Made by a program: the position numbers and the translations under genes | The notes under the pieces: model-generated | The model's database searches: none | What the model was told of the DNA's origin: nothing | Seen by the model: only the letters and a program-made list of their open reading frames with translations | Part shown: positions 19,635 through 53,352 of the stretch, in pieces | Numbering within the stretch: position 1 is the stretch's first letter | Layout: the number at the start of each line of letters is the position of its first letter | Virus record (IMG/VR): IMGVR_UViG_3300034200_001536 | Location: 39,215 to 103,214 of that record | Strand: one strand, 5' to 3' | Source: a virus | Length of the DNA: 64,000 bases

Positions 19635-19940
19635 ATGAGTAAGCGTCCTGTAAATTTAGAAACAAGATTACCAAAAGGTTTACAACCATCATTAGAAAAT
19701 AATGAATTATTGATTAATAGATTTTTAAAAGCTTGCAGCAAAGAATCCCTAACACAGTATCTTTATGATTATTCTGCTTATACAAGACGATTTGACAAGC
19801 CCAGCGTATTAGAACGTCAACGTCAATTACAATATAAGCGTAATGCTAAAAAAGCAAATCAATTATTGATGACTGACCCTGAAGTTTCCACAAAAAAGAA
19901 AAAGAAAAAGCCTGCTAAACGTGCAGAATCAGCACAATAA
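19635..19940 (+). CDS. rpsU: Divergent ribosomal protein bS21 homolog
   Basis: ENNELLINRFLKACSKE...RFDKPS..RQR resembles bS21 (E..D.ALRRFKR.C.K...YEKP..RKR); basic tail. Confidence 0.65.
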   Translation: MSKRPVNLETRLPKGLQPSLENNELLINRFLKACSKESLTQYLYDYSAYTRRFDKPSVLERQRQLQYKRNAKKANQLLMTDPEVSTKKKKKKPAKRAESAQ

Positions 19941-29340: not shown

Positions 29341-30195
29341 ATGCGAAACAATTTAGAACGTCTTGGTGCTGATATGAGCAATCAAGATGTTACTGTACCA
29401 CAACAATTAGAAGAATCAAATGATGTAAAAGCAGCACCATTAAGCTTCATAGTCCCAACAGAGTTTGTCTCCCTTCCTTCTAAGGGTTTATTCTATCCGC
29501 AAAATCATCCATTATATGGTAAGGATAGTATTGAAATTAAGCAGATGACTGCTAAGGAAGAAGATATTCTTTCATCCCGAAATCTATTAAAAAAGGGGGT
29601 GGCATTAGATAAGCTTATTCAATCATTGGTTGTTGATAAAAGAATCAATACTGATACTTTAACAATAGAAGACCGTAACGCAATTATTGTTACAGCACGT
29701 ATATCTGCTTATGGAGCAGATTATTTAACAACAGTTGCTTGTCCATCTTGTGGAGAGAAAAGCAAGCATACTTTTAACTTATTAGAAAAAGTTGACGCTG
29801 CCGAACAATTGCAGCCAGTATCAGTAGATGAAAATGGCTTATTTACCGTAACCCTTCCAGCAACTAAATGGAACGTAAAATGTCGTGCATTGAATGGCTA
29901 TGACGAAAAAGCTATTATGCGTCTTACGGAAGCAAAAAAGAATTCTTCAGAAGGCGATTCACTTTTGTTAGAACAACTTAAAATGACTGTTATTTCTATC
30001 AATAATGTTAACGATAAAACTATGATTTCAGATGCGTTAAATGCTCTTCCAGCAAGAGATGCTAAATATTTACGTTCTACCTATCAGAACACCATTAAAG
30101 GTGTAGATATGCGTCATACTTTTAACTGTAAGTCTTGCGATACTCAAACCGAGTTGGAGGTGCCACTGTCCGCAGACTTTTTTTGGTTTAAGTAG
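29341..30195 (+). CDS. Tail/baseplate assembly chaperone (gp26-like)
   Basis: LPSKG, MTAKEEDIL, two CxxC, ends DFFW; lies just before tape measure. Confidence 0.75.
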   Translation: MRNNLERLGADMSNQDVTVPQQLEESNDVKAAPLSFIVPTEFVSLPSKGLFYPQNHPLYGKDSIEIKQMTAKEEDILSSRNLLKKGVALDKLIQSLVVDKRINTDTLTIEDRNAIIVTARISAYGADYLTTVACPSCGEKSKHTFNLLEKVDAAEQLQPVSVDENGLFTVTLPATKWNVKCRALNGYDEKAIMRLTEAKKNSSEGDSLLLEQLKMTVISINNVNDKTMISDALNALPARDAKYLRSTYQNTIKGVDMRHTFNCKSCDTQTELEVPLSADFFWFK

Positions 30196-43793: not shown

Positions 43794-43998
43794 AGGAAAA
43801 TTTAAACCTAAAATCGGTCAACTTGTTGCTTGGCCTATGCAATATAATTTTTCGGGAGAATTAATAGAACACTTAGGTTTAATAACATATATATTTCCAG
43901 ATGGTTTAGTTGAAGTAACGTTCTTGAAAAATAATTGGATTATTACTTTGCAGACAAAACATTTACGTTTATTAAATGATGTTGCAAGCACAGATTAG
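43777..43998 (+). CDS. Hypothetical protein
   Basis: 73 aa ORF. Confidence 0.5.
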   Translation: MTLNSKGKFKPKIGQLVAWPMQYNFSGELIEHLGLITYIFPDGLVEVTFLKNNWIITLQTKHLRLLNDVASTD

Positions 43999-44009
43999 TG
44001 TGATAGTAT
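43982..44009 (+). promoter_or_regulatory. Sigma70-like promoter for deaminase
   Basis: TTGCAA-16 nt-TAGTAT with TGn. Confidence 0.5.
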
Positions 44010-44040
44010 GTATTCAGTAGTTCCAACCAAGGAGAAAGAA

Positions 44041-44509
44041 ATGGATACCGATGCGACGACGAGCTATGTGAAGAAGCATAACGACATTGAGGATAAGATG
44101 ATTCCCCATGTGGAAGCTTCTAAAAAGGTTCGGAGGTATCTTCCAGCTGGCTAAAAAGCTTGCTGGTAATTCTACTTATGGAAATTTTCGGCATGGTGCT
44201 GTGCTTGTACGGGGTGGTGCAATCGTTGGTTTGGGCATTAATTCAGAAAAATACTGCTCTGTTGGTAGAAACTATCGTCCCGAAGAGAAGGGTAATGCAA
44301 CGTACCATGCAGAAATCAAGGCGCTATTAAATATCCCCAGACACATTTCTAAGGGAGCTGTTATGTATGTTGCACGTTGCTCTAAGAACGGTGAAGATGA
44401 CCGCATGAGCAAACCGTGCACTATGTGTCATGCCGTTATGGAAGAACGAGGCATCCGTAAGGTTTATTACACAGTCGATAATGAAGTTGTTGGTACTTAT
44501 AAGTTTTAA
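44041..44509 (+). CDS. Zn-dependent cytidine/dCMP deaminase-family protein, split across two frames (+1 at ~44142)
   Basis: HGAVLV, HAE, PCTMC motifs in frame 44144..44509; AAGGAG-led ATG at 44041 is in a different frame that stops at 44154. Confidence 0.75.
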
Positions 44510-44520
44510 AGGATTATAAT

Positions 44521-44655
44521 ATGATTATTTATTTGCTTATTGGTTTTAACATTATTACTGCTCTTTTTGCACTAGAGATGTTCTTGCAAAATCGTGCATT
44601 ACGTTCAGGCTTGGTAGAAGAATTTAAAAAAGAAATTTCAAATAAGGAAATTTAG
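44521..44655 (+). CDS. 44-aa single-TM protein
   Basis: AGGA SD; MIIYLLIGFNIITALFAL; not in ORF track. Confidence 0.5.
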   Translation: MIIYLLIGFNIITALFALEMFLQNRALRSGLVEEFKKEISNKEI

Positions 44656-44657
44656 CG

Positions 44658-44867
44658 ATGGATAATAATTTAAATATAATGAAGCTTATTTCTAATCTTG
44701 AAAGCGAGAATGACTTTCTCAAGACACAATTAAAAGTAGCTATAGATGATTTGTCTAATCTACGTAAAGAAGTACAAAATCTTAGGTTAGAATTATTAAC
44801 TATTCATGGGCAATGTCTAGAAGAGCATCACAGGAAAGGAATTTGTCCTAATGAACGACTCTACTAA
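44658..44867 (+). CDS. Small coiled-coil protein
   Basis: Heptad Leu pattern. Confidence 0.55.
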   Translation: MDNNLNIMKLISNLESENDFLKTQLKVAIDDLSNLRKEVQNLRLELLTIHGQCLEEHHRKGICPNERLY

Positions 44868-51450: not shown

Positions 51451-52071
51451 ATGAACGATAATACAGTAATCCTCATGGGATATTATGGTAATGATTTAAC
51501 TCACGGTTTGTCTGCTTGGACTAGCACCAATCGAGAGCTTTCAGAAGAAAAGCGTAACCGTCTTCCAAAACTTTTAAATATGCTTGGTTCTGAAGGTCAC
51601 CACACACCCTTTGAAAAGAGCATGTTTCATTTTCTTGTAACTACAGATATTGCTACTCATATTCATATTCTAAAACATCGTGTTGGTGTTTCAGTAAATG
51701 CTGAAAGTGCAAGATATAAGGAATTGAAAGATGATAAGTTTTATGTTCCAAGTGATTGGGATTCAGAAGAACAAGGTAAATACATCGTGTTTATGGAAGA
51801 TGCCCTAAAACAATATCACGATACTCTTAACCGTTTGGTAGCAAAGGGTGTACCACGAAAGCGTGCAAAGGAAAGCGCAAGATTCTATTTACCATACGGC
51901 AATCAGATTACTTCTGATATTTCTTTTAATTTCAGAAGCTTCATGCATTTCCAAGGTTTAAGAAATAGTGAACATGCACAATTAGAGGTGCGTGAGTTAG
52001 CACAAAAGATGTTAGATTTAGTAAGAGCAACTGGTCAATTTGATGAAAGTCTGAAAGCATTTGGTTATTAA
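51451..52071 (+). CDS. thyX: Flavin-dependent thymidylate synthase
   Basis: HHTPFE, KHRVGVSVNAESARY, ARFYLP, HAQLEVR. Confidence 0.9.
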   Translation: MNDNTVILMGYYGNDLTHGLSAWTSTNRELSEEKRNRLPKLLNMLGSEGHHTPFEKSMFHFLVTTDIATHIHILKHRVGVSVNAESARYKELKDDKFYVPSDWDSEEQGKYIVFMEDALKQYHDTLNRLVAKGVPRKRAKESARFYLPYGNQITSDISFNFRSFMHFQGLRNSEHAQLEVRELAQKMLDLVRATGQFDESLKAFGY

Positions 52072-52073
52072 TT

Positions 52074-52625
52074 ATGACTTGCATAATCGGATATCTAAAA
52101 GATAGCGTTGTACATATTGCTGCTGACAGCCAGATAACTTGTGGTACAAGAATAGATGCAAGCGACTATGAAAAAATTCTAATTAATGGCGACATAGTGG
52201 GAGCGTTTTCTGGTAATTTACATTGTGTAAATGCCCTAGAGTCAGAATTTAAAAAAATACAATCTGATAAAGTAACAAGTTTAAAAAATGATTTACATGA
52301 TAATTTTTTAAAACCTGTAAGAGACTTAATTAAACGAAGAGAAATACCAGATAGTTATATAAACTTTAGAGCTTTGATAGCTAAAAAAAACGAATTAATT
52401 GAAACCGATAATCATTATGCTATTTTAGATATTAATGAAAAATTTAGCATAGGTTCTGGTGCATATTATGCTCTAGGAAGTTTAGAAGCTTTGGACAGAG
52501 TGAGTACTCTATCTCTTGAACAAAAATTAAAAACGTCTATTTTAGTTGCTAATAATTATGACACGGGAACAAACGATAATATTAAATATTGCAACACAAA
52601 AGATTTAAAAATTATTAAACTATAG
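52074..52625 (+). CDS. Ntn-hydrolase, HslV/proteasome beta-like
   Basis: N-terminal Thr (TCII), AADSQ, conserved K, IGSGAYYALG. Confidence 0.75.
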   Translation: MTCIIGYLKDSVVHIAADSQITCGTRIDASDYEKILINGDIVGAFSGNLHCVNALESEFKKIQSDKVTSLKNDLHDNFLKPVRDLIKRREIPDSYINFRALIAKKNELIETDNHYAILDINEKFSIGSGAYYALGSLEALDRVSTLSLEQKLKTSILVANNYDTGTNDNIKYCNTKDLKIIKL

Positions 52626-52635
52626 AAAGAGTAAT

Positions 52636-53352
52636 ATGATTAGTTATTTATTTGACATTGACGGAACATTAACACAGCCAAGACAAAAGATAACTCCAGA
52701 ATTTGAGGAATACTTTTTTAATTGGATGCAAGATAGAATGGTATTTCTTGTAACTGGCAGTGACCTAGTTAAAGTAAAAGAACAATTAAGCGAAAGAATA
52801 CTTCTTTCCTGCCAAGGAATCTTTTGTTCTATGGCTAATGAGCTTTATAAGGGAGATAAACAACTATACAAGAATGAGCTAAAGATATCCGATGAATTAA
52901 TCTTTTGGCTTAAGCAGCAATTAGAAAAATCACCTTATCCAGTTAAAAGAACTAACAATCTAGAATTTCGTAGTGGTATGTTAAACTTCTCTGTTGCTGG
53001 TAGAGATTCTACAGTAGAAGAACGTAATGCATATTATGAATGGGATAAGTTAAACGGCGAACGTCAAAGAATTGCGGATTATATTAACAGAACATATCCC
53101 GATATGGAAGCGTGTGTTGGCGGACAGATAAGTATTGATATTCAAAACAAAGGTAAGAATAAAAGCCAAGCCAGTGCATTTGTTCGTATGCACGTTTCTG
53201 AAACAGATATTATATTCTTTGGCGATAAAACAATGGTAGGTGGAAATGATAGAGCTATTGTAGAAGATATAATTAAAAATATGGACGGTTTTAGTGGTTT
53301 CTATCAAGTAGAAGGACCAGAAGATTTAAAAACGATATTAGAGGCAATTTAA
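52636..53352 (+). CDS. HAD-IIB phosphomannomutase-like enzyme
   Basis: FDIDGTLT, VTGSD, EFRSGMLNFS, GGQISIDI, FFGDKTMVGGND. Confidence 0.85.
   Translation: MISYLFDIDGTLTQPRQKITPEFEEYFFNWMQDRMVFLVTGSDLVKVKEQLSERILLSCQGIFCSMANELYKGDKQLYKNELKISDELIFWLKQQLEKSPYPVKRTNNLEFRSGMLNFSVAGRDSTVEERNAYYEWDKLNGERQRIADYINRTYPDMEACVGGQISIDIQNKGKNKSQASAFVRMHVSETDIIFFGDKTMVGGNDRAIVEDIIKNMDGFSGFYQVEGPEDLKTILEAI

Follow-up and report, generated by a model that had tools for sequence, protein, structure and literature searches.

The window, the whole stretch of DNA analysed here (64,000 nucleotides), comes from an IMG/VR virus record from lake water (103 kb, 57% complete, 33.6% GC). The window encodes a Gp23 capsid gene of the T4 type, and its source is an uncultured T4-like phage from a lake. 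Among cultured phages, protein comparison puts Flavobacterium phage immuto (capsid 50%) and Microcystis phage Mel-JY01 (helicase 38%, capsid 47%) nearest, both of them too distant for a host to be named. The features under study lie on the plus strand. An initiation Shine-Dalgarno (SD) sequence, AAGGAG (44029..44034), is separated by a 6-nt spacer from ATG 44041, which opens frame 0; this frame holds 37 codons and closes with TAA at 44152-54. Its first 34 codons (44041..44142) form a leader that has the slip codon as its last codon, and the final 7-8 residues of the leader, SKKVRRYL, open helix 1 of a deaminase. The body of the deaminase is in the +1 frame, which is open from 44102 to TAA at 44507-09. 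This body (44144..44509) extends from Q35 to F155, followed by the stop codon, and carries the HAE (44306-14) and PCxxC (44414-28) motifs. The junction between the two frames (44131-44146) reads CGG AGG TAT CTT C CAG. Four elements are discerned in it: an SD-like candidate stimulator, CGG AGG (44131..44136), with GGAGG at 44132-36 and, together with T 44137, 6 nt complementary to the 3' end of the 16S rRNA; a 3-nt spacer that would be the E-site codon TAT (Tyr, 44137..44139), identical to the spacer of E. coli prfB; the putative shift site CTT_C (44140..44143), comprising the P-site Leu codon CTT (44140-42) and the skipped base C 44143; and the first +1 codon, CAG (44144-46). Decoding of CTTC as one Leu would give a 155-aa protein, ...SKKVRRYL-QLAKKLAG..., while frame 0 continued without a slip reads CCA GCT GGC TAA (44143..44154) and gives a 37-aa product. 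The deaminase frame also has an ATG of its own (44108..44110), the start chosen by gene callers for a 133-aa ORF. The SD-led ATG, the 37-codon ORF and the deaminase in the +1 frame are all found in the sequence where the first-pass annotation of this DNA had placed them.

Reading of the sequence upstream of the leader suggests a promoter-like element (43982..44009, plus strand), with TTGCAA (43982-87) and TAGTAT (44004-09) separated by 16 nt that include TG (44001-02). A sigma-70 consensus scan upstream of 44041 flagged no promoter, the window copy having 8/12 matches. An extended -10-like element (TG-n-TAnnnT) is present 25-37 nt 5' of the leader ATG in 43/56 related loci, and TTGACA often precedes it by 17 nt. 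In one clade (loci L016, L017 and L050-L058) an inverted repeat, CCTCCTAGTG...CACTAGGAGG, straddles the -10 upstream of the leader ATG. This repeat would cover the leader SD on read-through transcripts only, which resembles the T4-style occlusion of a ribosome-binding site. Directly 3' of the deaminase, two small ORFs occupy 44521-44867: one encodes a peptide of 44 aa that is hydrophobic in its N-terminal segment, the other a coiled-coil-like protein of 69 aa with weak, sub-threshold Pfam matches.

The protein appears to be a dCMP-deaminase-like enzyme, with dCMP as the putative substrate. The product of the 133-aa ORF from ATG 44108 scores 52.5 bits against PF00383 (cut-off 25) and covers positions 8-101 of the 102 of the Pfam model. 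PHROG 174, 'dCMP deaminase', matches the deaminase at E = 1e-18. The best PDB profile match, a weak one, is the dCMP deaminase of cyanophage S-TIM5 (4p9c, E = 4e-4, aligned from residue 22), and the single-sequence search of the PDB gave no match. The deoxycytidylate deaminases of Streptomyces phages show 35-38% identity and align from residue 27. The alignments with dCMP deaminases of the PDB and of cultured phages thus begin at residues 22-27, inside the segment encoded in frame 0, and the alignment with PHROG 174 also has its start in that segment. Scores for the NCBIfam ComEB and cytidine deaminase models were far under their cut-offs, and no equivalog was reached. The AlphaFold model of the 155-aa protein, calculated with a 10-sequence alignment (mean pLDDT 70.6, pTM 0.72), has low confidence for residues 1-8 and presents a helix at residues 28-41 that is continuous across the junction L34/Q35 (pLDDT 86-88). 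In Foldseek the model falls within the CDA fold; its matches (TM ~0.5) are the deaminase domain of RibD, dCMP deaminases of human and viral origin, and cytidine deaminases. The small phage dCMP deaminases (S-TIM5 4p9c, PHROG 174) have the same zinc-deaminase fold, the same HAE and PCxxC motifs and a like size, whereas the identity to them is only ~20-38% and the acidic N-terminal leader of 24-35 residues is specific to the lake-phage clade. Genes in the neighbourhood encode SSB, a UvsX-like recombinase, a UvdE-like endonuclease, a flap exonuclease, an HNH endonuclease, DnaB, ribonucleotide reductase (RNR) and ThyX. This would be a nucleotide and replication module, in which the conversion of dCMP to dUMP to dTMP would be sensible for a genome of 34% GC. 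The earlier idea that recoding limits a mutagenic enzyme is not supported, as the protein looks like a nucleotide-pool dCMP deaminase beside RNR and ThyX and unlike a mutagenic DNA deaminase. The ThyX gene (PF02511, E = 1e-35) opens a stretch at 51451-53349, where a proteasome-subunit-like ORF (PF00227, E = 6e-6) and a phosphomannomutase-like HAD hydrolase (PF03332, E = 2e-30) come after it.

A single-base frame break is the commonest error type in metagenome-assembled genomes, so that the interruption could be a sequencing artefact (an erroneous extra C) or the mark of a decaying gene. Contigs of two further lake-water DNA runs, from other samples and other studies, span 44140-46 with zero differences and zero gaps. 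Contigs of two metatranscriptome libraries do the same, a result compatible with minor RNA indel variants or with DNA carry-over. These RNA-library contigs have their ends near 43947-43961 and 44464-44477, positions that do not define the ends of a transcript. This independent-run evidence consists of assembled contigs; since those of the four other runs are unchanged at the junction, it rules out a slip in the assembly as well as an RNA indel at the consensus level. The frame break is not an assembly error, and the independent contigs retain CTTCCAG, not the CTTCAG expected if the extra C were an error. Besides the identity of the four further runs, the break is common to 54 diverged sequences, both halves of the gene show the third-position variability of purifying selection, and the HAE and PCxxC residues of catalysis do not vary. 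The reading of the locus as a pseudogene or an artefact is already contradicted by these data, and we consider it extremely improbable.

Scans of viral and metagenome contigs yielded 58 distinct junction regions of relatives, with deaminases 55-93% identical. The same +1 shift is required in 54 of them, so that close relatives, far from being all in frame, mostly keep the break. The DNA downstream of these 54 shifted junctions is 47-100% identical (median 69%), and the signal is far more uniform. The SD block is CGGAGG in 51, AGGAGG in 2 and AAGAGG in 1; GGAGG is therefore present in 53/54, the remaining one having AGAGG. The spacer is 3 nt long in 54/54 (TAT 48, TTT 3, TTA 2, CTA 1). CTT is the slip codon in 52 and CTC in 2; as for the skipped base, 28 have T, 26 have C and none has a purine, which gives the shift sites CTT_T (28), CTT_C (24) and CTC_C (2). 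Both the frame break and, apart from these variants, the string GGAGG-TAT-CTT-C, on which the first-pass annotation had built its comparison with prfB, are conserved in homologs. The A-site codon of frame 0 is CCA, UCA or CAA, and a stop codon in none of the 54. Ribosomes that do not slip would meet 2-22 further codons before a stop, which is 3 codons past the slip codon in 34/54 and 7 codons past it in 14/54; this frame-0 tail has no protein-level conservation among the relatives. The first +1 codon is CAG in 49 and AAG in 5. It is never CAA or AAA across the 54, though these are the preferred codons (CAA 86%, AAA 70%), and the invariant G that ends it may be part of the signal. Three contigs (L038, L039 and L040), representing two distinct junctions, carry the variant cassette CGG AGG TTA CTC C. 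Re-pairing in the +1 frame at CTC_C, on UCC, has a central mismatch, and these three may shift by a somewhat different route.

The distribution of variability along the 54 sequences distinguishes the cassette from its flanks. Mean per-column entropy at frame-0 codon positions 1, 2 and 3 upstream (-45 to -13) is 1.01, 0.94 and 1.65 bits, and at +1-frame positions 1, 2 and 3 downstream (+4 to +60) it is 0.33, 0.25 and 1.21 bits, so that each flank has the periodicity of coding sequence in its own frame. For the 12 nt of CGG AGG TAT CTT the values by codon position are 0.11, 0.16 and 0.13 bits, and the third positions of the CGG AGG codons are invariant wherever GGAGG is present. Because even the synonymous positions are frozen, the cassette is under selection at the nucleotide level and not at the protein level. 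CGG and AGG, already remarked upon as uncommon, indeed account for 15/615 Arg codons each (2%) in the 44 long ORFs of the window, and the chance that an Arg-Arg is encoded as this pair is therefore <0.1%. One relative (L033) narrows the location of the shift: its +1 frame opens 8 codons before the junction and its frame 0 closes 2 codons after it, and the shift is therefore bounded to ~30 nt that hold the cassette. The motif [A/C]GGAGG-N3-CTY has a single occurrence in the entire 103-kb record, at the deaminase junction. As a separate observation, the stretch 30156-30195 holds GGAGGTG and, 15 nt later, seven consecutive T (30178-84), shortly ahead of the stop codon of the ORF 29341-30195 in the tail region.

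Where translation starts bears on a different explanation, in which two genes overlap: a leader ORF (44041-44154) and an independently started deaminase of 133 aa, initiated at ATG 44108 or by re-initiation past the leader stop. This ATG is present, the 133-aa ORF passes the PF00383 threshold alone, and gene callers annotate many relatives as proteins of 131-133 aa. The start is nonetheless not shared. In a search from the preceding in-frame stop to the junction in the 54 frameshift-type relatives, the deaminase frame has no ATG in 31/54 and no ATG, GTG or TTG in 24/54; an ATG with an SD-like sequence is found in 1/54. ATG 44108 itself has no well-spaced SD, the sequence GAGGA (44089-93) being 14 nt off. 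The SD-led leader ATG is found in 54/54, at 21-35 codons ahead of the slip codon. Because the start at 44108 is not conserved in relatives, it is, as judged from the alignments, a lineage-specific accident used by the gene callers, although in the window this ATG could yield some enzyme without slipping. Separate genes are also hard to reconcile with the natural in-frame fusions described below, in which leader and deaminase are one protein, and with the frame-0 residues SKKVRRYL, which fall within helix 1 and can be aligned to other dCMP deaminases. The invariant, rare-codon GGAGG-N3-CTT-Y, and the loss of GGAGG on closure of the frame, would be left unexplained. We regard two separate genes as very unlikely. 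An SD-like match stands ahead of the ATG in 63% of the phage ORFs vs 14.5% at random positions; SD-led initiation is thus widespread in this phage, and the anti-SD of the host ribosome is therefore available. A practical consequence, if the slip is real, would be the correction of annotation, as gene callers now truncate such deaminases to 116-133 aa or use spurious starts.

Relatives in which the frame is closed provide a natural comparison. In the databases, eleven proteins (145-149 aa, with two fragments among them) are each encoded by a single ORF with the pattern MD.DGPQ...KK.RRYL[Q/S/K]LAKK.... Their natural in-frame RRYL-[Q/S/K]-LAKK is, by sequence, exactly the product predicted from the slip. 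Among the 58 close-relative junctions, four DNA loci are in frame. Three of them have lost GGAGG (L021, CGA AGG TAT CTT TCG; L042, CGG AGA TAT CTT CAG; L077, AGA AGA TAC CTT AAG), and the fourth (L060, CGG AGG TAT CTT CAG) looks like a recent one-base deletion. Sixteen distinct and more distant in-frame relatives (40-50% identity) have ...KK.RRY[FI]... at the protein start, encoded with the Arg codons CGT, CGA and AGA, and GGAGG is absent from them. Because these distant relatives carry RRY[FI] without GGAGG, RRYL is ancestral in the deaminase and the SD is not forced by the protein. Overall, GGAGG is present in 53/54 shifted vs 1/20 in-frame sequences (Fisher p = 2e-15), and for the close relatives only in 53/54 vs 1/4 (p = 5e-4), with the reservation for both values that kinship among the sequences overstates their independence. 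Loci of this 40-50% identity range (L034, L035 and L116-L167) are plain in-frame genes without the acidic MD.D leader; in L035 the deaminase lies between UvsX/RecA-like and UvdE-like genes, so that the neighbourhood is partly conserved.

The maximum-likelihood tree nests in-frame forms in frameshift clades at several places, and three of these nestings are strongly supported (L060 beside L071/L072, L021 beside L048, and P0021/P0028 beside L043/L044). The frame state has therefore toggled repeatedly, and since in-frame forms arose more than once, the shift is dispensable for the enzyme. Repeated viable reversions to a single frame fit a tuning role better than an essential one. As single-base changes switch the cassette on and off repeatedly in evolution, it might also, more speculatively, be a portable module.

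A broken frame and a signal shared by 54 distinct sequences very probably reflect deliberate recoding, judged on the sequence comparisons. Programmed +1 recoding at a prfB-like cassette of SD, 3 nt and CUU, giving ...RRYL-QLAKK..., had been proposed from the window alone; this core now has strong comparative support, and the functional guesses attached to it are unsupported. The alignments argue, and we hold with high confidence, that the mechanism is an SD-stimulated +1 slip of peptidyl-tRNA-Leu as in prfB, minus the stop codon and the RF2 feedback. We infer the slip, as well as its efficiency and its purpose. Ribosomes would initiate at the SD-led ATG 44041 and read the 34 leader codons. [quoted passage not shown] The peptidyl-tRNA-Leu would then re-pair one base forward on UUC (on UUU in about half of the relatives). 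The restriction of the skipped base to C or T would be explained by a G34 anticodon, which pairs with U or C in the re-pairing on UUY. CAG would be read next, and translation through the zinc-deaminase body would produce the 155-aa enzyme. Ribosomes that do not slip would decode CCA GCT GGC, stop, and release the 37-aa peptide. Neither the surroundings of the site nor the sequence 3' of it yielded a conserved RNA structure, the alifold energy (-1.26) being within the range of the column shuffles.

The same outcome, with one base unread, could be reached by another route: slippage during transcription, editing of the RNA, or a special tRNA that decodes CUUY as a quadruplet. The record is 57% complete, and its missing part could carry a phage tRNA. 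Against transcriptional slippage and editing, the site (CTTCCAG or CTTTCAG) has no homopolymer run, and the RNA-library contigs equal the genomic sequence with no gap. A special decoding tRNA is unsupported, since ARAGORN, run on the window and on the whole 103-kb record, finds no tRNA gene. Moreover, none of these routes needs an SD exactly 3 nt upstream, yet this is the most constrained feature of the site. Such a route is thus highly unlikely. Separately, the 101-aa ORF at 19635-19940 was considered as a phage bS21 that would act on the anti-SD and was rejected; it has no Pfam, NCBIfam or PHROG support, its best match being a PHROG of unknown function (E = 0.13).

For the SD-stimulated slip, codon usage gives some indication of the efficiency. 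CCA accounts for 62% of the Pro codons of the phage, CAA for 86% of Gln and UCA for 21% of Ser, and CAG for 14% of Gln. The efficiency may be low, because it is the incoming +1 codon CAG, and none of the A-site codons, that is rare. The cassette has no stop codon and misses the pause that prfB gains from its own. The rare, slow A-site codon of a hungry-codon (Ty1-like) site is likewise absent by phage codon usage, which is a proxy for the host tRNA pool. A sensor of proline decoding at CCA, as the first-pass annotation had imagined, is not borne out, as the A-site codon varies among CCA, UCA and CAA and CCA is the commonest Pro codon. The slip is probably of modest efficiency, and its simplest purpose would be to hold the enzyme made from each mRNA at a low and constant level. 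Most likely, the cassette presets, and probably lowers, the deaminase yield per transcript. More tentatively, and on balance doubtfully, it might be a tunable switch and not a fixed attenuator, that is, a stop-less prfB-type +1 site with an efficiency that follows the ribosome state of the infected cell. Free anti-SD, m1G37 modification of tRNA-Leu and A-site competition are examples of what it could respond to. If so, the switch would serve the timing or dosing of dCMP deamination, and hence of the dTTP available to a genome rich in AT (33.6% GC).

Full-text searches of the open-access literature combining frameshifting, deaminase and phage found no description of the deaminase cassette, and a DNA search of the cultured-phage collection found no carrier of it. 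The SD-stimulated +1 shift at CUU_U in bacteria is textbook knowledge for one gene, prfB, and the explanation given there is that RF2 is sensed through the stop codon. If our reading is true, the 'spring' of rRNA-mRNA pairing and the CUU codon suffice for biological use without a stop. Recoding research would also gain a second, independent and evolutionarily dynamic system, with many natural on and off variants to compare.

The bacterial autoregulatory +1 site of prfB consists of an SD-like element, 3 nt, and CUU_UGA_C (PMC5009743; PMC12421855). The likeness to the deaminase cassette is close. An internal SD-like element would pair with the anti-SD in the same register, with a spacer of exactly 3 nt; the spacer codon is TAT in most members; the P-site CUU is followed by a pyrimidine, which makes re-pairing of the tRNA-Leu on UUY possible; and the site is near the start of the gene (codon 34 in the window) with no downstream RNA structure. 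For SD-stimulated +1 shifts in general, the 3-nt spacing is the rule and CUU_U is by far the best shift site (PMC5009743). The differences concern the A site and the gene. Where prfB has UGA, the deaminase has a sense codon in 54/54; because this codon is an ordinary and common one, there would be no release-factor feedback, and the cassette is without release-factor competition and without autoregulation. The product is a phage enzyme of nucleotide metabolism and not RF2. All CUU-stop +1 sites in RECODE are prfB (PMC10885494).

The +1 site of yeast Ty1 and ABP140, CUU_AGG_C (PMC5009743), works by a +1 slip of peptidyl-tRNA-Leu, as the phage site would. Ty1 uses a slow, rare A-site codon and no SD, whereas in the phage the A-site codons are common and the stimulator would be the rRNA-mRNA pairing. 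A parallel to the decoding situation at the deaminase junction comes from reporters, with the same order of SD, 3 nt, CUU and then a sense codon. Curran and Yarus (J Mol Biol, 1989) reportedly replaced the UGA of the RF2 site by sense codons and found that shifting was measurable and tracked the speed at which the sense codon was decoded. Those reporters were laboratory constructs, whereas the deaminase cassette would be a natural and conserved use of the same arrangement.
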